64,000 bases of DNA from Vicinamibacterales bacterium (GTDB lineage: Bacteria > Acidobacteriota > Vicinamibacteria > Vicinamibacterales > UBA8438): NCBI GenBank assembly GCA_965249175.1, contig OZ252227.1:1731762-1795761 (forward strand), written 5' to 3'. Numbering within the stretch: the stretch's first letter is position 1; every line of letters begins with the position of its first letter. The translations under genes and the position numbers were made by a program. Positions 15,162 through 54,837 of this stretch are shown here, piece by piece. The notes beneath the pieces are model-generated. The model saw only the letters and a program-made list of their open reading frames with translations, made no database searches and had not been told where the DNA came from.

Positions 15162-17111
<1,950 letters not shown>

Positions 17112-28764: not shown

Positions 28765-30185
28765 GCTAATCTTAGTTGAAAATTGAAACGGCTCCAGACC
28801 CTGTGGTGTGATGACGTTGCAAAAGACGGACATCACCCCACGAGAGAGAGGAGCCACGATGAGTGTCCTACGTGCTGTCAGGAAGCGCAAGAAAGTTCGC
28901 AAGCTGGGCTCGGTCAACATCATTCACCGCGAGGCCTACGCGGATCTGGAGCTGGACGCGAAGGTGGAGCTGATCCGCTCGCTGGTTCCCCTGGGCCTGA
29001 TGCATGTGCAGGAGTTGCTCGACCAGGAGGTGACGGCGCTGGCGAGCGAGCGCTACGTCCGGAAGGACGCGTCGGTCGGTGGACGCCGTCACGGCAGTAA
29101 CCCTGGGACGGTGGGTCTCGCGGGGCAGCGCGTGCCGATTCGCGTGCCCCGGATTCGTCGCCTCGCAGGGAGCGAGATTCCGCTGCGGTCGTATGCGGCG
29201 TTGCATGACGACCGCGAGGTGGACGACGCGCTGCTGCGACGGGTGCTCTACGGGATCTCGTGCCGCAACTACGCGGCGGCCGCGGCGGCGATTCCCGGGG
29301 CGATCGGGCTGTCGAGTTCGACGGTGTCCCGGGGGTTCATCCAGGCCAGCGCGGCGCAGCTACGGGCGTTCCAGGAGCGGGACCTATCCGATGAGGACGT
29401 GGTGGCCGTGTTCCTGGACGGCAAGACGTTCGCTGACGCGACGATGGTCATCGCGCTAGGCATCACGCTGTCTGGGGAGAAACGCTTCCTGGGCTTCGTC
29501 GAAACGGACACGGAGAACGCGACGGTGCTCACACCGTTCCTGCGGTCGTTGGTCGAGCGGGGCCTCGACCTCTCCCAGGGTGTGCTGGTCATCCTCGATG
29601 GCGGCAAGGGGCTCCGCACGGCCGTCCGGAAGGCCTTCCGGGGCCGGGCCCTGGTCCAACGGTGCCAGTGGCACAAGCGCGAGAACGTGGTGAGCTACCT
29701 GGCCAAGCACGAGCAGGCGGTGTGGCGTCAGCGTCTCCAGCGAGCGTACAACCGGCCGGACTACGACGAGGCCCTCGGTGCGCTCGAGACGCTCCACGGC
29801 GAGTTGGACGAGCGGAACCAGTCGGCGGCTGACAGCTTGGCGGAAGGCCTGGACGAAACCCTGACGTGACATCGATTGGGCGTGTACGGAGTGCTGGGCC
29901 GGTCGCTGAAGACGACGAACTGTCTGGAGTCGGTCAATGCGCTGGTCGAGGAACGCTGCGCGAAGGTAGATCACTGGCAGAGCTCGAGCCAACGCCACCG
30001 CTGGCTGGCGACCGCCCTCCTGGACATCGAACCGCGCTTACGAAGGGTGAGGGGCTACCGCCACCTTCCCACGCTTCGGGCCGCATTGAAGCGAGAACTG
30101 AAGATCGACACGACGACGTCGAAGAAGCAGGCCGCGTAAGCCATCGGGAGCCGTGGAGAGTTTCAACTAAGAATGGGCTTGACTC
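28757..30185 (+). mobile_element. IS256-family element, copy 1 (transposase has a premature TGA at 29867)
   Basis: IRs containing TCTTAGTTGAAA; 8-bp TSD GACGGCGG (28749-28756 and 30186-30193); FLDG, ILDG, QRCQWHK. Confidence 0.93.
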
Positions 30186-30338: not shown

Positions 30339-30415
30339 TGGTCGGGGCGCCCGGATTTGAACCGAGGACTTCCTGCTCCCAAAGCAGGCGCGCTACCAGG
30401 CTGCGCCACGCCCCG
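30339..30415 (-). tRNA. tRNA-Pro(TGG)
   Basis: CGGGGCG acceptor stem, D arm, CCTGC-TT-TGG-GA-GCAGG anticodon arm, TTCAAAT loop, encoded CCA. Confidence 0.97.
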
Positions 30416-39250: not shown

Positions 39251-40525
39251 TCAGGTCGCCAGGCGTTTGCGCACCGCGGCCAGCTGCACTGCGGTCACGA
39301 ACAGCGGCATCGCCCGGTCGATCTCCTCGAGCGACGAGAAGGTGGGTGCCAGCCGGATGTTGTGATCCTCGGGATCGCGTCCGTACGGGAAGGGCGCGCC
39401 GGCCGGCGTGAGCTTCAGCCCGGCCTCACCCGCCAGCCGCACCGTGTCGGTGGCGACCCCCCGCGGCGTCTCGAACGAGATGAAATAGCCGCCGCGCGGC
39501 GTGGACCACGTCGCGATGCCGTCGGCTCCGAGCCCGTCGCGGAGATGCCGGAGCACCAGCTCGAACTTCGGACGCACGATGGCGGCGTGCCGGCGCATGT
39601 GCGCGCGGAGGCCGTCCGCATCCTTGAGGAAGCGAATATGGCGAAGCTGATTCAGCTTGTCCGGGCCGATGGTCTGGACCGCGAGGCGCGCCGTGAAGGC
39701 GGCCAGGTTCGCCGGCGAGGCCGCCATGAACGAGACACCGGCGCCGGCCCGGGTGACCTTCGACGTCGACCCGAACACCACGACGCTGTCGGCTGTCCCC
39801 GCGGCGCGGCAGCGCTCGAGCACGTTGGCGAGCACTGGCGGGTCGTCGTCCAGGTCGTGCATGGCGTAGGCGTTGTCCCAGATAATGCGGAAGTGTGGTC
39901 CCGCAATCGTCGCCAGCCGCGCAAACCGGTCGACCACGGCGTCGGAGTAGACCTCACCTGAGGGATTGGAATACTTCGGGACGCACCAGATTCCCTTGAT
40001 GTGGGGGTCCGCACCAACGAGTGCCTCGATCTGATCCATGTCGGGACCGTCGGCGCGCATCCGCACGTTGATCAGCTCGAAGCCCAGCTCCTGGGTGATC
40101 GCGAAGTGGCGGTCATATCCCGGCACGACGCAGAGAAACTTGAGGACGCCCTCCTCCCGGCGCCACGCGGTCTCCGGCCCGAGCGGCCCATGGAGCCACG
40201 CGCCCAGCAGGTACTGATACATCAGGGTGAGGCTGGAGTTCCCGCCGGCGATGACCTCCTCGGGCTGAACGTCGAGCAGGGCGCCGCCGAGGGCGCGTGC
40301 GCCCGCGAGGCCGGTCAGACCGCCGTAGTTCCGCGCGTCGACACCGTCCGAGATGAAGTCGCCGTCGATCACGTGCTCCATCGCATCGGAGAGCGCCAGT
40401 TGCTCCGCGCTCGGCTTGCCGCGCGTCAGGTCGAGGCGGAGACCGTGGCGGCGATGCTCGCCGTAACGCGTCGAGAGGGCACGCTGTCGCGCCGCGAGCT
40501 CATCGTGGCTCAGATCGTCGAGCAT
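39251..40525 (-). CDS. PLP-dependent aminotransferase class I/II (aspartate aminotransferase-like)
   Basis: [41 protein letters not shown]. Confidence 0.9.
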
Positions 40526-40563
40526 GGCGTGGTCCAAGGAGTGGTCACTATAATGACACGGCC

Positions 40564-43653
<3,090 letters not shown>

Positions 43654-43657
<4 letters not shown>

Positions 43658-44853
43658 GGCAGCACACCCGTGTCGCGCGCCGCGCCGACGATGGCGCCGA
43701 GGGCCGCGTCGAGGTCGGCCTGCGCGTGCGTGGCCATGGGCGCGATGCGGAGTCGCGCCGTGCCATCGGGCACGGTCGGCGGTCGGATTGCCGGGATGAG
43801 GACGCCGCGTTCGAGCAGGAGGCGGCTCATGCGCATGGCGCGCGCGGTGTCCCCGACCAGCAGCGGCAGAATCGGCGAGACGCTCGGGCCGAGGCGGAAT
43901 CCAGCCACGCTCAGGTCGTCGCGGAGGTGCTCCGCGTGCGACCACAGACGCGCACGACGCTCGGGTCCGTTGATGACGAGGTCGACCGCCACGCGCGCGG
44001 CGGCGACGACGGGGGGTGGCAATGCTGTCGTGTAGACGAACGGCCGTGCTGCATTGATCAGCCAGTCGATCAGCGCCTGACTACCCGCCACGAAACCACC
44101 GAGGGCCCCCAGCGCCTTGCTCAATGTGCCGATCTGCACATCCACCTCGTCGGCCAGGCCGGTGTGTTCCACCAGTCCACCGCCGCGCGGGCCGAAGACG
44201 CCCGTGGCGTGCGCCTCGTCCACGATGACCCAGGCGTCCCGGCGTCGTGCCACCTCGACGATCGACTCGAGCGGCGCCAGATCGCCATCCATGCCGAAGA
44301 GCGTCTCGGTGACGATCGCTCGCTGGGCGGCCGCCGGCGACGCGGCCAACAGCGCATCGAGATGATCGACGTCGGCGTGACGATAGACGTGGATCGCCGC
44401 GCGCGACAGGCGACAGCCGTCGATGAGGCTCGCGTGGTTCAGCGCGTCGCTGAAGATCGCGTCCGCCGGACCCATGAGCGCTGGGAGCACGCCGATGTTG
44501 GCGTGGTACCCCGACGAGAACAGTACCGCCGCGTCGGTGTGCTTGAGGGCGGCGAGCGCTGCCTCGAGGTCGGCGTGCGCCGCGGTCGACCCAGCGATGA
44601 GCCGAGCGGAGCCTGCACCCGCACCGGCGGCGGCGGCCGCTTCGGCGGCGGCGCGCGTCACGGCCGGATGGGTCGCCAGGCCCAGATAGTCGTTCGAGGC
44701 GAGCTGAATGATGGGACGTCCGTCGATTGTCGTGGATGGGGCCGGCCCGGCGTCGAGCGTTCGCAGGCGCCGGCGCAGGCCGCGACCGTCCTGGGCCGCG
44801 AGCCGGTCGCTCAACACCCTATCGAGCCGCGACCGTGGGGGTGCTCCGATCAT
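43654..44853 (-). CDS. bioF: 8-amino-7-oxononanoate synthase
   Basis: SNDYLGL, FSSGYHAN, DALNHASLIDG, DEAHATG, GTLSKALG, IRPPTVP. Start 44853 or 44862. Confidence 0.94.
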
Positions 44854-45057
44854 CGGCCGCATCGTACCACTGTGTTGGAGTCCCCCGGGGTCGATGGCGC
44901 AGCGCTCAGTGTGGGGTAGCGCTCGTCGTTGAGCAGCTCGCCAACCTGCAGCCGGTTCGCCGACCCCACCGCTCGTGCACTGTCGCGGGCGATGCGTTCG
45001 GCGCCACCTGTGTCCTTTCGGGCATGATAGGGACCGCGGCGGAGAGGGGAGGCAGCC

Positions 45058-45477
45058 ATGACGAACAACGCGGGTCGCGTCGCGACGGTGCTGGTGCTGG
45101 CCGCATGGGGTGTGGCCTGCGCGGCTGCCGGTGCGCAAGGTGAGAAGCTTGACATTGACGAGCTGAAGCAGCAGCTCGACTCCGGCGCCACGATGCTGCT
45201 CATCGATGTGCGGGAAGAGCACGAGATCGCGAGTGGGTCCATTCCCGGTGCGATTCACATCCCGGTCGGCGACCTCGAAGCGCGCATGGCCGACATCCCG
45301 AAGGACATTCGGCTCGTCTTCTTTTGAAATGGCGGAGGCCGGAGCTCCCGGGCGAAGGAGCTCTTCACCGCGAACGGATACGAGACGGTCGAGTTCTGCG
45401 CGCTGAACGACTGGAAGGCGAGGGGCTACGAGCTGGGCGAGACGGCGAAGCCGAGGCCGGGGCGCATCCGGCCCTGA
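45058..45477 (+). CDS. Exported rhodanese-domain protein, probable selenoprotein (TGA at 45325-45327)
   Basis: IDVRE...IPGAIHIP...LVFF-TGA-NGGGRS: the TGA is at the catalytic Cys position (CxxGxRS). The frame continues with the rhodanese C-terminus to TGA 45475. Confidence 0.8.
45332..45371 (+). promoter_or_regulatory. Candidate bacterial SECIS stem-loop
   Basis: GAGCTCC (45342-45348) / GGAGCTC (45357-45363), loop CGGGCGAA, 14 nt after the UGA; lower GCGG/CCGC stem. Confidence 0.6.
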
Positions 45478-45503: not shown

Positions 45504-45640
45504 CGGGGCCTGCCGGCCGCGCACATCCCTCCAGAAACCGGCTCGCCTCGGGGCGCGTCGTGCCGCTTTCAGGGAGGCGGTGCTTCGTCTCGCCAAAGGC
45601 AGACGGTTTCTTCTGGGATGTGCGCGTCCAGCAGGCCCCG
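45504..45640. ncRNA. Unassigned long imperfect hairpin (candidate structured RNA or palindromic element)
   Basis: Hand pairing gives a nearly continuous rod across 137 nt in an intergenic region; strand and expression unknown. Confidence 0.4.
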
Positions 45641-45802
45641 ACACGGCCCCTGTGGGCTGCAGGACTGTCGTCATCCGGATACACTCCGTTGCCCGCCCTT
45701 CTGGACAGACGGCCTGGTCCGTTGCGCAGATCTGCACATGAACTGGGCTGACACGCGTGACGATAGTGGTTGGCAAGCGGTTTGCTCGAGTACGATGTCT
45801 CG

Positions 45803-47701
45803 ATGCGAGCGTCGCGGGTCGTTACTGTCGTCATCGCCGTTGTGCTAGCCGCCGTCGGGGCCCGGCAGCTCCAGGGTCAGACTCCGCCTGAGGCGCCTGC
45901 CAGCATCGGCGACATGATTCCCCTCACGGCCCTTGCCGCCGATCAACACGGCTTGGCCCTGTGGAACAACACCGACGGAGTGCTCGAGGCGATGAAGACG
46001 GGGCACGACACGAGTTGGACGACATGTTCGAACTCCGCTCCGTTCTACCTTGCCACGCGCGATCACTCCACACTCGACGCGGCCTCATCGGCGGGCCTTC
46101 GTGCGGCACCGGTCATCGACGGTCTCGACGGATTGACGGATGCGCTGGCGACGAACGGCTTCGCGACGACCGATGTGACGCTCGGGTGGAGCGCGCAGTC
46201 CCTCGGCGCCGACATCGAGGGTGACGACTGGCTCTTCGATGCGACGACCGGGGTGGAGCGGCGCTACTACACTGGCGGTCTGCTGACGCTGAGCGTAGGC
46301 GGCGAGCCACTCGCGACCGCACCGATGGCGCGGACCACGTTCACCATCACGTACAACGACCTTGCAGACTGCACGGACGACACCGTGGCACTCGCGACAG
46401 ACGCTGCGCTCCTCGAGAACGGCGCCGCGACCAGCACGGAACTGGTACAGGCGGTGGCGACGGCGCTCATCGACGACCTCGCGGGGAACGGGTTCAGCTT
46501 CGCGGTTGCCTCGCTGACAGTGACCGAGTCGGCGGCGACTGCATCGGCGTTCAGTGAATCGGGTCGCACCGGCGTGTTTCTCGAAGCCGCGTCCGGAAGC
46601 GCCGCGGTCAGCGCGCCCTGGTCGTGCGAGCTGGGCATTGACGAGGACGACTCCACGCACGACTGGACGCTCGTCTGGTCCGAAGACGAGCTGCCGACGA
46701 ACGGCCCGCTCCAGCTGAAGGTCGTGGCCGTCACGCACCCGGACTCCGACGATGCGTCGGACGGGGATCCGGGCGAGGACGAAGGTGCGGACTCCACGCC
46801 CGGCAGGGTCACGCTGACCGTGTTCGATGACAGCGCGCCGACGACGGGTGTCGTGGTCGACGTGGACTTCCCAGCGGCGAAGGGCGAGGCCCGCGGGACC
46901 GTCGATCTGACGATACAACCGGGCAACGAATACCGCGTCACAGTGGGGCACAGTGGCGGCACCGGTCGCGACTATCAGCTCGGTGTGAGTCACGACGGAT
47001 TACTCCTGGGCCAGACGGATCTGCGGTATTCGACCGGCCGTAGCCAGGACTGGGGCATCGAGGCGGGCGAGAACGCGACCGTCACGCTCGAGCTGGCAAC
47101 CGACGCGGCCGTGGCGGCGGCCACGGTGACGTCTGCGCACGAGTCGTCCACGATGGCGACGTCCGTGTTCGTGACGATCATCGACCCAGCCACACGCGAG
47201 ATCGTCAGCGGTCCCACCAACGTTGAGCTCGCGCCCGGCGTGCCGCAGAGCATCAGTGTCCAGAACGTCGGCGCGGCACGTCGTCTCATCGCGCAAGTCG
47301 ACCCGGACGGCGTCTTCCGCATCCGGCGGACGGATGGCGACGGCAAGCTCTACACACGACCCTGTCCGGCGCGGACCGCGCTCGCCTCGGCCACGCTGTC
47401 GACGGTGCAGACCGAGATCTTCACTCCCATATGCTCGGGATGTCACGGCGGGTTCAATCCGCGTGGGGGCCTCAATCTCCAGGAGGGGCAGTCGTTCTCC
47501 AACCTGGTTAACATCCAGAGCTCGCAGACCGCTATGAGTCGCGTCGTGCCCGGCGACCCCGATGCGAGTTACATCGTGCACAAGCTCGAGGGGCGAGCGG
47601 GCATTGCCGGCAGCCGGATGCCGCAGGGCGGGCCGTTCCTCTCGGACGCCTTCATAGCGTTGGTGCGCGCCTGGATTCAGTCAGGCGCCGAGGACAACTG
47701 A
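45803..47701 (+). CDS. Large exported acidic protein with C-terminal c-type heme domain
   Basis: Signal peptide; Thr/Ala/Asp-rich beta regions; IFTPICSGCHGG...SRMP at the C-terminus. Confidence 0.78.
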   Translation: MRASRVVTVVIAVVLAAVGARQLQGQTPPEAPASIGDMIPLTALAADQHGLALWNNTDGVLEAMKTGHDTSWTTCSNSAPFYLATRDHSTLDAASSAGLRAAPVIDGLDGLTDALATNGFATTDVTLGWSAQSLGADIEGDDWLFDATTGVERRYYTGGLLTLSVGGEPLATAPMARTTFTITYNDLADCTDDTVALATDAALLENGAATSTELVQAVATALIDDLAGNGFSFAVASLTVTESAATASAFSESGRTGVFLEAASGSAAVSAPWSCELGIDEDDSTHDWTLVWSEDELPTNGPLQLKVVAVTHPDSDDASDGDPGEDEGADSTPGRVTLTVFDDSAPTTGVVVDVDFPAAKGEARGTVDLTIQPGNEYRVTVGHSGGTGRDYQLGVSHDGLLLGQTDLRYSTGRSQDWGIEAGENATVTLELATDAAVAAATVTSAHESSTMATSVFVTIIDPATREIVSGPTNVELAPGVPQSISVQNVGAARRLIAQVDPDGVFRIRRTDGDGKLYTRPCPARTALASATLSTVQTEIFTPICSGCHGGFNPRGGLNLQEGQSFSNLVNIQSSQTAMSRVVPGDPDASYIVHKLEGRAGIAGSRMPQGGPFLSDAFIALVRAWIQSGAEDN

Positions 47702-47745: not shown

Positions 47746-49165
47746 GAGGGTGAGCTAATCTTAGTTGAAAATTGAAACGGCTCCAGACCCTGTGGTGTGA
47801 TGACGTTGCAAAAGACGGACATCACCCCACGAGAGAGAGGAGCCACGATGAGTGTCCTACGTGCTGTCAGGAAGCGCAAGAAAGTTCGCAAGCTGGGCTC
47901 GGTCAACATCATTCACCGCGAGGCCTACGCGGATCTGGAGCTGGACGCGAAGGTGGAGCTGATCCGCTCGCTGGTTCCCCTGGGCCTGATGCATGTGCAG
48001 GAGTTGCTCGACCAGGAGGTGACGGCGCTGGCGAGCGAGCGCTACGTCCGGAAGGACGCGTCGGTCGGTGGACGCCGTCACGGCAGTAACCCTGGGACGG
48101 TGGGTCTCGCGGGGCAGCGCGTGCCGATTCGCGTGCCCCGGATTCGTCGCCTCGCAGGGAGCGAGATTCCGCTGCGGTCGTATGCGGCGTTGCATGACGA
48201 CCGCGAGGTGGACGACGCGCTGCTGCGACGGGTGCTCTACGGGATCTCGTGCCGCAACTACGCGGCGGCCGCGGCGGCGATTCCCGGGGCGATCGGGCTG
48301 TCGAGTTCGACGGTGTCCCGGGGGTTCATCCAGGCCAGCGCGGCGCAGCTACGGGCGTTCCAGGAGCGGGACCTATCCGATGAGGACGTGGTGGCCGTGT
48401 TCCTGGACGGCAAGACGTTCGCTGACGCGACGATGGTCATCGCGCTAGGCATCACGCTGTCTGGGGAGAAACGCTTCCTGGGCTTCGTCGAAACGGACAC
48501 GGAGAACGCGACGGTGCTCACACCGTTCCTGCGGTCGTTGGTCGAGCGGGGCCTCGACCTCTCCCAGGGTGTGCTGGTCATCCTCGATGGCGGCAAGGGG
48601 CTCCGCACGGCCGTCCGGAAGGCCTTCCGGGGCCGGGCCCTGGTCCAACGGTGCCAGTGGCACAAGCGCGAGAACGTGGTGAGCTACCTGGCCAAGCACG
48701 AGCAGGCGGTGTGGCGTCAGCGTCTCCAGCGAGCGTACAACCGGCCGGACTACGACGAGGCCCTCGGTGCGCTCCACGGCGAGTTGGACGAGCGGAACCA
48801 GTCGGCGGCTGACAGCTTGGCGGAAGGCCTGGACGAAACCCTGACGTTACATCGATTGGGCGTGTACGGAGTGCTGGGCCGGTCGCTGAAGACGACGAAC
48901 TGTCTGGAGTCGGTCAATGCGCTGGTCGAGGAACGCTGCGCGAAGGTAGATCACTGGCAGAGCTCGAGCCAACGCCACCGCTGGCTGGCGACCGCCCTCC
49001 TGGACATCGAACCGCGCTTACGAAGGGTGAGGGGCTACCGCCACCTTCCCACGCTTCGGGCCGCATTGAAGCGAGAACTGAAGATCGACACGACGACGTC
49101 GAAGAAGCAGGCCGCGTAAGCCATCGGGAGCCGTGGAGAGTTTCAACTAAGAATGGGCTTGACTC
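47746..49165 (+). mobile_element. IS256-family element, copy 2, inserted in a REP
   Basis: Near-identical to 28757-30185; open transposase frame to 49119; 8-bp TSD AGCCTCGA (47738-47745 and 49166-49173). Confidence 0.93.
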
Positions 49166-52316: not shown

Positions 52317-53369
52317 ATGGATGACAAGAAGGTTGAGGAGTTGGCCTTTCGCGTAATTGGTGACATGGGCGGTTCGTTTGTGATGGCGCTCGGTCACATC
52401 GGCGATCGGCTCGGGTTGTTCGCGGCGATGGCTGGCGCCGGGCCGCTCACGTCGTCCGAGTTGGCCGCGAAGACCAATTTGAACGAGCGCTACGTTCGGG
52501 AATGGGCGAAGGCGATGGTGGCCGCCGAGTACGTCGACTATGAGCCGGAATCCCAGCGATACGTGATGACGGACGAGCAGGCGTTCGTGCTGGCGAACGA
52601 CGACAGCCCGATGTCAGTCGGTGGTGGCCTGCACTTCACCACGCCGTCCATGTACAACGTCCCGAAGGTGATGAAGGCGTTTCGCGAGGGTGGGGGAGTC
52701 TGCTACAACGAGATCGGAGACGAGATCCCGGAAGGAATCGAGCGCTTCTTCCGGCCGGGGTATGTCCATTTCCTGGCGAAGGATTGGATCGGGGCGTTGC
52801 CGGGTATGGTAGACCGCCTGACTCGCGGCGGCGCCGTCGTCGACATCGGTTGTGGTCGGGGGCAATCGACTGTCGCGATGGGGCGCGCCTACGGAAACTC
52901 GACGATCCTGGGCGTCGACAACCATGCTGAGAGCATCGCGTATGCGCGGGACATGGCCGCGCGCGAGGGGCTGGGCAACGTGACGTTTCTCGAGGCACCT
53001 GCCGATCGACTGCCAAGCGACCAGACGTTCGACCTGGCGTGTAGCTTCGACTGTATCCACGACATGGTGGATCCCGTAGGAACCCTCACCGCGATCCGTG
53101 GGGCGCTCGCCGACGACGGGATCTACTTCTGGTCCGAACCGAACGGGTCGGACAAGCCCGACGAGAATCGGAACATCCTCGGTCGTCTGTTCGCGTCGAT
53201 CAGCCCGCTGCATTGCATGACCGTCTCGCTCTGTCACAAGGGCGAAGGGCTGGGCACGTTGATCGGCGAACGCGGCGCGCGGGCGCTGGCTGAGTCCGCG
53301 GGCTTCTCGTCCTTCGAGAAAGTCGCGATCGACAACCCGTTCAACCAGTTCTTCGCGCTCCGTGGCTAG
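52317..53369 (+). CDS. SAM-dependent methyltransferase with N-terminal winged helix (Rv2258c-like)
   Basis: IGDRLGLF, ERYVREW, VVDIGCGRG, FDCIHDMVDP, LHCMTVSL. Confidence 0.88.
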   Translation: MDDKKVEELAFRVIGDMGGSFVMALGHIGDRLGLFAAMAGAGPLTSSELAAKTNLNERYVREWAKAMVAAEYVDYEPESQRYVMTDEQAFVLANDDSPMSVGGGLHFTTPSMYNVPKVMKAFREGGGVCYNEIGDEIPEGIERFFRPGYVHFLAKDWIGALPGMVDRLTRGGAVVDIGCGRGQSTVAMGRAYGNSTILGVDNHAESIAYARDMAAREGLGNVTFLEAPADRLPSDQTFDLACSFDCIHDMVDPVGTLTAIRGALADDGIYFWSEPNGSDKPDENRNILGRLFASISPLHCMTVSLCHKGEGLGTLIGERGARALAESAGFSSFEKVAIDNPFNQFFALRG

Positions 53370-54837
53370 CAGCCCGTGGTGAAAACGCCCTTTCGTAGGT
53401 CGAGGGGCATGTGTTCGTGACACCGTGTCATAAGGTCGAGAAACGACGAGTGCGGCAGATCTTGCGCATCTCGCGCCCACGCGGGCGATACGAGGGTCCA
53501 GAGGCGGCCAAGATCAGCGATCAAGGCCTCGAAGACGGCGACCGCGCGGCCTTGGAGGCTCCGCGGCGTGCCGACGCCCGTCAGCTGCCGCATGAGGAGC
53601 CCAAGATTGAACCCGCAGACGTGCACAAGCACGCGCTTGAGGATGTTGGGATGCCCACGCAGATGCACCCGGCGCAGCCGCCCGGTCTCGTAGAGATGCG
53701 CGTTGGGGCGTTCGAGCAACTCGCCCCGCCGTCGCAGCAGCCGTTGCCCACGCGTGCCCCGAATGCGCCGACGGTTCGCGTACACGGCGTCGCGCGCCGC
53801 CGCCTTGCCTGTCCAGTTGCGTCGCCCGCGGTCCGGCTCCGAAACATAACTGCGCACGCCGAGCGCGGCGAACGCCACCATCGTCTCGTTACTGTGATAC
53901 CCCTTGTCCCCGACGACCTCGGCGATACCGGCGCCGGCCGGCAGGACGGCTTCGACGTGGTCGGCCGCCGTGATCAGGGTCTCGACCATCGTCGTCGTAT
54001 CGCCGTCGTCGGCATCCTGCACGGTGACGCCGACGATGGCCCCCGTCTCCAGGTCCACCGCATGCTCCGCGGTGTGCGCCAAGTGCGTGCGCCCGTCCTT
54101 CAGCTTCGTGATCTTCGCGTCCGGATCCTGCGGATGCGTCCAGTCGTCGTTGGAGCCTTTCTTCTTCCGTTTCCGGTCGAACCGGGCCAGCTCAGCGCGG
54201 GTCGGCGTGACGATGCCGGACGCCTCGGCCAGCCCGGTCAGAAACGCCTCGTAGCCTTCGCCCGTGTCCCGGCGCACGATACTCCGCAATGCGGCGTTCG
54301 CTTCCAACGTCGTGGCATCGATGCCGAGGGTCCGCCCGGTCACGAGCTGGGCGTCGGCCAGTTGCTGCAGCACCCACGTGAACACCGCTTGATGGGTCTC
54401 GACGTCGATCAGGCGCCGGGTGCGCGACAGCGTCGAGTGATCCGGCGGCGCCTCGTGCAGCTCGAGGTCCAGAAACTGCCGGATGCTCAGCGAATCGGCC
54501 GCCCGCCACGCGATCGCCCGCTCCGAGTCCAGCCCTTCGAAGTAGCCGAGCATCAGCAGCCGGAAGTACCGCCCCGGCGCCAGACTCGGACGACCGACGC
54601 CGTCCGCGTAGAACGGCGCGCATTGCGCCTCGACGAACGCGTCGAAGCCCGTGTCATCGAGGATCCGATTCAATCGCTGATAGAACGGATGCGCCGCACT
54701 GCGAGGCAGGTCGCTGGTGGGAACCCACATCGATGCTTGCCGCGCCCGGCGTCGTCGTTTGCCCATCGCCATGCGCGACAGTGTAGTACGCGGGATCGAT
54801 CGTGTCGATCCCTAATAGGGACTTTCACCACGGGCTG
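53370..54837 (-). mobile_element. IS1182/IS5-like insertion sequence (transposase 53366-54772)
   Basis: 15-bp perfect IR CAGCCCGTGGTGAAA; CTAG duplicated on both sides; GRPS, PPDHSTLSRTR, IDAT, GDKGY motifs. Family assignment is approximate. Confidence 0.88.

Follow-up and report, generated by a model that had tools for sequence, protein, structure and literature searches.

A genuine selenoprotein gene lies at 45058..45477 on the forward (+) strand of the window, the 64-kb stretch of a Vicinamibacterales contig (Acidobacteriota; OZ252227.1) that was analysed here and whose positions serve as coordinates throughout. The gene comprises 139 codons and encodes a rhodanese in which codon 90 specifies selenocysteine (Sec). 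This identification is based on the translation, Pfam matches, orthologues in 80 genome loci and a comparison of synonymous and nonsynonymous change (dN/dS). The most probable explanation of the locus as a whole is a secreted single-domain rhodanese, synthesized as a 139-residue precursor, whose catalytic Sec is inserted at UGA90 with the help of a selenocysteine insertion sequence (SECIS) hairpin. The probability of this explanation is put at roughly 0.86. In public databases the members of this Sec rhodanese clade appear as truncated entries, either unnamed or labelled 'hypothetical protein'.

A single reading frame runs from the ATG at 45058 to a terminating TGA at 45475-45477. It is preceded by a Shine-Dalgarno-like GGGGAGG (45046..45052, +), read from the sequence 5 nt upstream of the ATG. 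The sole internal in-frame TGA of the translation is codon 90 (45325..45327, +), standing at the catalytic residue of a loop U-N-G-G-G-R-S, which is of the C-X4-R-S type. When Cys is written at this codon, the rhodanese homology domain PF00581 (45154..45390, +; residues 33-111) is matched with an E-value of 3.5e-15 and 56.7 bits against a gathering score of 22.2. The 89-residue truncation alone gives a partial match, covering profile positions 2-65 of 102. The segment LVFF-U-NGGGRSSRA is aligned with FYC-GGGFRS of PDB entry 6mxv and with FC-QVGLR of 3nta, the closest solved sequence being 6mxv_A (E 3.3e-21), and generic rhodaneses likewise carry Cys at the position of the TGA. An earlier reading of the letters alone, hereafter the sequence-only reading, had claimed that the TGA sits exactly at the active-site Cys, that the domain is completed in frame after it and that a gene caller would truncate the product to 89 residues. 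All three claims are borne out, as VFF-U-NGGGRS falls at codon 90 in register with the Cys of solved rhodaneses, the PF00581 match spans the TGA, and a public protein entry (P0001) is exactly the 89-residue product, matching the window without a difference.

The locus is not a split gene, and a separate downstream gene was ruled out, because no in-frame start codon follows the TGA. Downstream of the TGA the frame has a GC content at third codon positions of 0.94. UGA is not generally reassigned, because the gene itself terminates with TGA. The codon directly before the UGA, a Phe TTT (45322..45324, +), is invariant in 14 of 14 Vicinamibacteria sequences (the window, L001-L012 and L081 included) despite the genome preference for TTC. 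In the same 14 sequences, the Phe codon one step further upstream is TTC in nine and TTT in five, and the codon before the UGA is TAC in all six Terriglobia. The constant TTT may reflect a codon-context requirement for Sec insertion. A scan of the window for TGA codons flanked by coding-like frames returned this gene and a broken IS256 transposase, and no further selenoprotein gene.

The in-frame TGA is widely shared among relatives. A first genome scan, with one genome per species and confirmation by tblastn, yielded 18 close relatives among metagenome-assembled genomes of Vicinamibacteria and Terriglobia. TGA was present at the equivalent of codon 90 in all 18, and amino-acid conservation continued 3' of it. 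A second scan used a query built from the family alignment; among its best 80 loci, from 79 Acidobacteriota assemblies of the same two classes, 79 carry TGA and one, from Terriglobales (L361), carries TGC. Furthermore, 52 of 53 database homologues are gene-caller products of 86-111 residues, all ending in ...LVFF. No full-length relative containing U was returned by the homologue search of the protein database or by the profile search of 1.84 billion representatives. Selection was compared over 20 sequences, with 40 codons after the TGA set against 44 before it. The mean proportions of synonymous and nonsynonymous differences (pS/pN) were 0.66/0.23 after the TGA and 0.62/0.22 before it, values that are indistinguishable. 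Additionally, the 20 × 40 codons after the TGA contain no stop in frame, as compared with 13 and 22 stops in the other two frames.

These comparisons bear directly on the alternative that the TGA is a nonsense mutation or a sequencing error, leaving a pseudogene or a truncated 89-residue product. Gene callers do read this TGA as a stop, and an IS256-family transposase copy in the same window does carry a nonsense TGA, at 29867. However, a TGA shared by 79 of 80 loci across two classes and from many independent studies, purifying selection that is equally strong downstream of it, and a conserved RNA structure on its 3' side make such an accident scarcely credible. Homologues that never carry TGA, together with a genome devoid of Sec machinery, had been named beforehand as the sign of a mutation or read error. 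As to the homologues, what was found is the opposite, in the 18 close relatives, in the 79 of 80 loci and in the 52 truncated entries alike. On the Vicinamibacterales chromosome record OZ253576.1 the rhodanese gene occurs twice, at 87,744 (L308) and 6,415,440 (L309), each copy close to one end; a true duplication is possible, or else an overlap between the ends of a circular assembly.

A candidate bacterial SECIS hairpin follows the UGA at 45341..45364 (+). It consists of an 8-bp stem, GGAGCUCC/GGAGCUCU, closed by an 8-nt apical loop, CGGGCGAA (45349-45356), with a folding energy of -13.4 kcal/mol. Numbered from the U of UGA, positions G17-C24 pair with G33-U40, so that the hairpin begins 13 nt after the UGA and the spacing from UGA to loop is 21 nt. 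The published model of the bacterial SECIS (bSECIS) allows a loop of 3-9 nt, a stem of 4-16 bp, a G at loop position 1 or 2, a UGA spacing of 16-37 nt and a minimum free energy of -7.5 kcal/mol or lower (PMC13188914). The window hairpin satisfies every one of these constraints. A second Vicinamibacteria variant (CGAGCCUCC...GGAGCUC; -9.3 kcal/mol) also fits the model, as does the hairpin of Terriglobia, GCGCGC-GUC-GCGCGC, which occupies the same place with an unrelated sequence, a GUC loop, a 17-nt spacing and -14.1 kcal/mol. The Rfam scan of the window returned no SECIS match.

The comparative evidence for the hairpin comes from synonymous sites. Among the 14 Vicinamibacteria sequences, the codons of the stem arms, counted from the UGA, show no synonymous variation at +6 (GCC, 8/8), +7 (TCC, 14/14), +10 (GCG, 10/10), +11 (GAG, 14/14) and +12 (CTC, 14/14), and next to none at +13 (TTC, 13/14). 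Five of the six arm codons are thus fully invariant, as against none of the 61 other codons (Fisher p = 6e-7). The mean synonymous identity of these 61 codons is 0.50, and the two loop codons vary too. Moreover, the codon for Arg+5 goes with its neighbour, being CGG in the five sequences with Ser AGC at +6 and the rare CGA in the nine with Ala GCC there; GAGC therefore stays available to pair with GCUC. In a further locus, L370, a compensatory change has replaced the G18-C39 pair by A-U, and both substitutions (CGG to AGA, CTC to CTT) are synonymous. In Terriglobia, seven of the eight codons from +3 to +10 are fully invariant, which is the longest such run in the gene. The frozen synonymous sites and compensatory changes support the view that the candidate at 45341-45364 behaves as a SECIS. 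The stem-loop that the sequence-only reading had noticed at SECIS distance has accordingly gained in substance, with its 21-nt spacing, its conserved synonymous sites and its compensatory changes.

The machinery for Sec was sought in the lineage through SelA, the synthase specific to Sec. A GC-biased DNA pattern for the motif GDKLLGGPQAG, taken from an alignment of the E. coli and Aquifex proteins, matched SelA genes in Vicinamibacterales and other Acidobacteriota, and a SelA query made from one of these matches retrieved at least 80 Acidobacteriota SelA loci. The five loci tested scored 523-540 bits with TIGR00474, above its equivalog cut-off of 268. By the overlap of the best-80 lists, at least 23 assemblies hold both SelA and the TGA rhodanese, and the two genes share a chromosome record in OZ244051.1, OZ242279.1, OZ219745.1, OZ220718.1 and OZ242205.1. 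Of the Sec machinery, SelA thus occurs in the lineage, and in relatives it shares assemblies with the TGA gene. Acidobacteria had already been recorded as Sec users in 2006 (PMC1794560).

The same evidence bears on another way of reading UGA90, by a system other than that of Sec. A suppressor such as an allo-tRNA, or a tRNA-Cys resembling tRNA-Sec, would place Ser, Cys or another residue at codon 90. Allo-tRNAs, possible missense or nonsense suppressors, are known in Acidobacteria, and the selC* tRNA-Cys may read UGA in other phyla (Mukai et al., PMC5389517). The family also has natural members with Ser (P0010, P0055) or Cys. However, selC* has not been reported from Acidobacteria (PMC5389517), a general suppressor would lengthen the product of a gene that ends in TGA, SelA co-occurs with the TGA rhodanese gene, and the hairpin, being conserved, position-specific and in agreement with the bSECIS model, is of the kind that marks SelB-dependent decoding. 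Decoding by such a tRNA is therefore considered very improbable, and UGA90 is best read as Sec.

The family also contains members with another residue at the position of Sec. Alternation of Cys and TGA among aligned homologues had been suggested as a check by the sequence-only reading, and it was found, in P0071, P0060 and others as well as in the TGC of L361. The profile search, which was exhaustive over the 1.84 billion representatives, returned full-length Cys orthologues with a signal-like N-terminus (P0060, P0063, P0064, P0071, P0076, P0092, P0151, P0158 and P0195), most of which also share the C-terminal tail of the family. P0071 reads IFY-C-QGGGRASR, with the codon TGT, where the Sec forms of Terriglobia read VFY-U-QGGGRASR. 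Two Ser forms, both from forest soil, are P0010 (loci L084-L086; codon TCG) and P0055. In P0010 Ser also replaces the second Cys of the family and the SECIS hairpin is lost; P0055 retains the second Cys. Such Ser rhodaneses may lack activity or have been put to another use, and the gene of the Ser form adjoins a gene for a trypsin-like protease. A third Sec clade is represented by P0122 (locus L370, 56% GC), in which the TGA is followed by NGGGRSSRAAELF...FCPLNDWKAKGY. At L370 (104-1504) there is a 4-nt overlap between the rhodanese gene and the end of a gene for a pyridoxal phosphate-dependent enzyme (Pfam Pyridoxal_deC, with a SepSecS-family match), an arrangement that is not seen in the window and that suggests translational coupling.

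The N-terminus of the window protein carries a predicted Sec-type signal peptide of 26 residues (45058..45135, +), with cleavage by signal peptidase I (SPase I) after A-G-A and before Q27. It reads MTNNAGRVATVLVLAAWGVACAAAGA up to the predicted cleavage site and QGEK beyond it, that is, one Arg and a hydrophobic core, then A-G-A and Q. The corresponding heuristic features are found in all 53 homologues, namely 1-6 Lys or Arg, a hydrophobic core (mean Kyte-Doolittle value of 2.1-3.2 over 12 residues) and A/V-x-A/G followed by Q. The character of this segment is conserved while its sequence is poorly conserved, as is typical of signal peptides. The AGA-Q signal picked out by the sequence-only reading is thereby upheld across the family, and Sec-type export of the rhodanese is inferred. 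Export as a lipoprotein, through a GVAC lipobox, or by the twin-arginine (Tat) route was ruled out, neither motif being conserved in the homologues; GVAC is not a lipobox because its Cys21 is not conserved.

It is also conceivable that the protein contains Sec and yet is not released to the periplasm, being held in the inner membrane by an uncleaved signal anchor or staying in the cytoplasm. The export call is a heuristic one, a Cys (Cys21, in GVAC) lies within the hydrophobic region of the window protein, and the n-regions of some homologues are long. Nevertheless, small residues at -3 and -1 followed by Q occur in 53 of 53 homologues, the hydrophobic region of about 12-18 residues is typical of cleaved signals, Cys21 varies, and no twin-arginine consensus is present. 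Retention in the cell is accordingly held to be unlikely, and release of the selenoprotein to the periplasm is preferred.

Several observations weigh against the explanation as a whole. The evidence for selenium in the protein is indirect. In the window itself, tblastn with E. coli queries detected no SelA, SelB or SelD and Rfam no tRNA-Sec, and the same three queries found none in L001-L086. Additionally, selB, selC/tRNA-Sec and selD were not found within about 10 kb of selA in Acidobacteriota, no wider search having been made. The hairpin is no more stable than dinucleotide shuffles (z -1.3 to +0.8), the coding sequence being GC-rich; the support for the SECIS is comparative, from synonymous sites and covariation, rather than thermodynamic, because these shuffle z-scores are not significant. 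Moreover, the motif R-A/S-S-R-A by itself favours self-complementary codons. A similar hairpin is still folded by the Cys form P0071 (L289, 938-1378), where on a contig of 47% GC the GC-rich codons CGT GCG TCG CGC preserve the Terriglobia-type structure; it may be a fossil SECIS after a recent change from Sec to Cys, or a coincidence. The support for export is heuristic only. Finally, no gene neighbour of the rhodanese is common to Vicinamibacteria and Terriglobia, and the gene context is uninformative on the substrate for this reason.

As regards the active site, a six-residue C-X4-R-(S/T) loop is the mark of sulfurtransferases, while a seven-residue C-X5-R loop is of the Cdc25/arsenate reductase type. 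The loop of the family is conserved as U/C-x-x-G-x-R-[SA]-S and belongs to the six-residue type. The window protein has both the domain and the six-residue loop of the catalytically active sulfurtransferase type, and it may act as a sulfurtransferase. In the AlphaFold2 model of the Cys orthologue P0060, the predicted local distance difference test score (pLDDT) is low over residues 1-30 and exceeds 90 from there (about residue 31) to the C-terminus. The top Foldseek matches of this model are all rhodanese domains, with root-mean-square deviations of 1.5-2.2 Å.

Two features are specific to the family. The first is a second Cys, Cys114 (TGC; 45397..45399, +), 24 residues after the Sec, which was recognised from the genome loci and the alignment. 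All 79 genome loci that could be scored have it, as do 19 of the 20 Sec, Cys and Ser forms in the alignment, and its equivalent is absent from the generic rhodaneses L019-L028. The alignment with PDB sequences also indicates that the usual 'GG' after rhodanese strand 5 is missing in the window protein. In the P0060 model each of the two Cys residues stands directly after a strand (88-92 and 112-116). The sheet order of the rhodanese fold is 1-5-4-2-3, and a Se-S bond between Sec90 and Cys114 is plausible because these strands are neighbours in that order. Judged from the model, Cys114 is a possible selenenylsulfide partner of Sec90. The notion that Sec and Cys114 are always lost jointly was dropped, as P0010 has Ser at both sites while its relative P0055 keeps the second Cys; this evidence is weak. 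The second feature is a conserved C-terminal tail, KPRPGRIRP (45448..45474, +), with the motif P-x-x-G-x-I-x-P, which is seen in the alignments and is modelled in the orthologue with a pLDDT of 90 or more. This tail could be a partner-docking element.

The events that would follow from the preferred explanation can be outlined as follows. In the mRNA, the SECIS hairpin would fold 13 nt downstream of UGA90, as the comparative evidence suggests, and UGA90 would be read as Sec. The hairpin would recruit SelB with Sec-tRNA(Sec), as in bacteria, in a lineage that carries SelA. Residues 1-26 would then direct the protein across the inner membrane, where signal peptidase I would probably cut after A-G-A. 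Once the protein has reached the periplasm, this acidobacterium being a diderm, the selenolate of its C-X4-R-S-type loop may take sulfane sulfur or selenium from thiosulfate or a persulfide, and the loaded atom may afterwards be handed to an acceptor. Alternatively, the enzyme might cycle through an intramolecular Se-S bond with Cys114 and act in periplasmic redox chemistry or sulfur trafficking, in a way comparable to E. coli PspE. We infer a periplasmic function in the transfer of sulfur or selenium, or in redox chemistry. A bolder proposal would make the family a new class of periplasmic two-residue redox enzyme, with Sec90 and Cys114 on a rhodanese scaffold working through an intramolecular selenenylsulfide cycle, instead of a plain sulfurtransferase; this is regarded as doubtful. 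Under that proposal, abundant soil Acidobacteriota might use the enzyme to reduce or traffic persulfides, polysulfides or species of selenium in the extracytoplasmic space.

The surroundings of the gene differ between lineages. Synteny within Vicinamibacteria alone involves a PF12897 aminotransferase, an SSF symporter, a Band_7 protein and a class-III aminotransferase. In the window, a biotin synthesis cluster (40357-44850) separates the rhodanese from the PF12897 aminotransferase; in other Vicinamibacteria the two are direct neighbours. The cluster comprises bioB (+, 40357-41526), a bioD-like gene (-, 41523-42380), bioA (-, about 42281-43651) and bioF (-, about 43654-44850). An open reading frame at 43654-45258 (-), which overlaps the start of the rhodanese gene, is an upstream over-extension of bioF. 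Beginning 27 nt after the rhodanese stop, a long hairpin at 45504-45640 (+) has 40-nt arms that are 85% complementary and a folding energy of -97.8 kcal/mol (z = -7.1 relative to shuffled sequences). L001 has it in near-identical form and L002 lacks it; the window contains no second copy, and Rfam gave no credible match. This hairpin may be a terminator or the leader of the downstream gene (45770-47701, +). The latter encodes a protein of 643 residues whose N-terminus is hydrophobic and which carries a C-terminal CSGCH (CxxCH) motif; no Pfam family and only a faint NCBIfam match were found for it. It stands next to the rhodanese gene in L001 and, in part, L002 only, and appears to have been inserted between the rhodanese and its usual neighbour.

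The window additionally carries a load of mobile elements. Two IS256-family transposase copies are found at 28787-30139 (+) and 47797-49119 (+). The TGA of the first copy (ETLT*HRLGVYG, at 29867) corresponds to Leu in the intact copy, and the first copy is an ordinary nonsense pseudogene; just after it lies a tRNA-Pro(TGG) at 30339-30415 (-). Two ALIL pseudoknots (RF01497), the frameshift element of IS3-family insertion sequences, occur in a lower-GC stretch at 15489-15605 (+) and 16666-16782 (-), with 108.5 and 87.7 bits, respectively. A DUF772/DDE transposase at 53369-54811 (-) adds to this load.

The consequences of the finding concern annotation in the first place. In at least 79 assemblies and over 50 protein clusters, a truncated 'hypothetical protein' of 88-106 residues stands in for a selenoenzyme of 126-140 residues, and annotation pipelines will keep truncating it because no NCBIfam model captures the family. 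Vicinamibacteria and Terriglobia, two lineages abundant in soil, gain a conserved selenoprotein of predicted extracytoplasmic location, and a selenium requirement of its carriers in these classes is implied. Furthermore, the natural series of Sec, Cys and Ser on one small scaffold offers a handle on what makes a rhodanese active site favour selenium. Nothing already established is overturned.

Among known systems, the E. coli protein PspE, a periplasmic single-domain thiosulfate sulfurtransferase, provides a close parallel. Both are small single rhodanese domains with a cleavable Sec-type signal peptide and a six-residue catalytic loop, and weak sequence matches connect PspE to the window protein (NF007627, E 1.3e-06; PDB 2jtq, E 3e-06). 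However, PspE has Cys in place of Sec and only a single Cys, whereas the window family has a second Cys, lacks the 'GG' after strand 5 and bears an extra C-terminal tail. Membership of the PspE equivalogs was rejected (NF007627, 28.5 against 102 bits; TIGR02981, 24.4 against 126.3 bits). The window protein may work like PspE though it is not a member.

Rhodaneses containing Sec are themselves not new, and the sequence-only reading was correct in recalling them as known (PMC13188914, PMC2398784). They have been catalogued in five 'forms' (PMC13188914), and a 'Sulfurtransferase COG0607' Sec rhodanese has appeared in surveys since 2005-2008 (PMC2398784, PMC9312934). The likeness to this COG0607 protein, form 2, lies in the single PF00581 domain, the Sec at the catalytic Cys position, with U-N-G-G fitting UxxG, and the same means of identification, namely a Cys/Sec pair, a bSECIS and TGA homologues. 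Zhang and Gladyshev reportedly predicted the Sec-containing COG0607 rhodanese in 2005. By contrast, the reviews mention no signal peptide, second conserved Cys, C-terminal tail or Acidobacteriota distribution. By PF00581 and UxxG, the criteria of those surveys, the window protein would be filed under form 2, whose published representative is MBM9537886.1.

The other forms are more distant. The rhodanese_LYCAU model NF041203 (form 3, 'rhodanese-related (seleno)protein') is of similar size, with 126 profile positions, and matches residues 14-113, but membership was rejected at 38.6 bits against a cut-off of 115, and its Sec motif is CxU as opposed to UxxG in the window. [quoted passage not shown] An exported selenoprotein is not unprecedented either, since the table of a selenoproteome review lists DsbA-like proteins, substrate-binding proteins and a TonB-dependent receptor, families judged extracytoplasmic from their names only. 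Thus, Sec-rhodaneses and exported selenoproteins have both been catalogued before, and it is this mis-annotated Acidobacteriota branch that is newly recognised.

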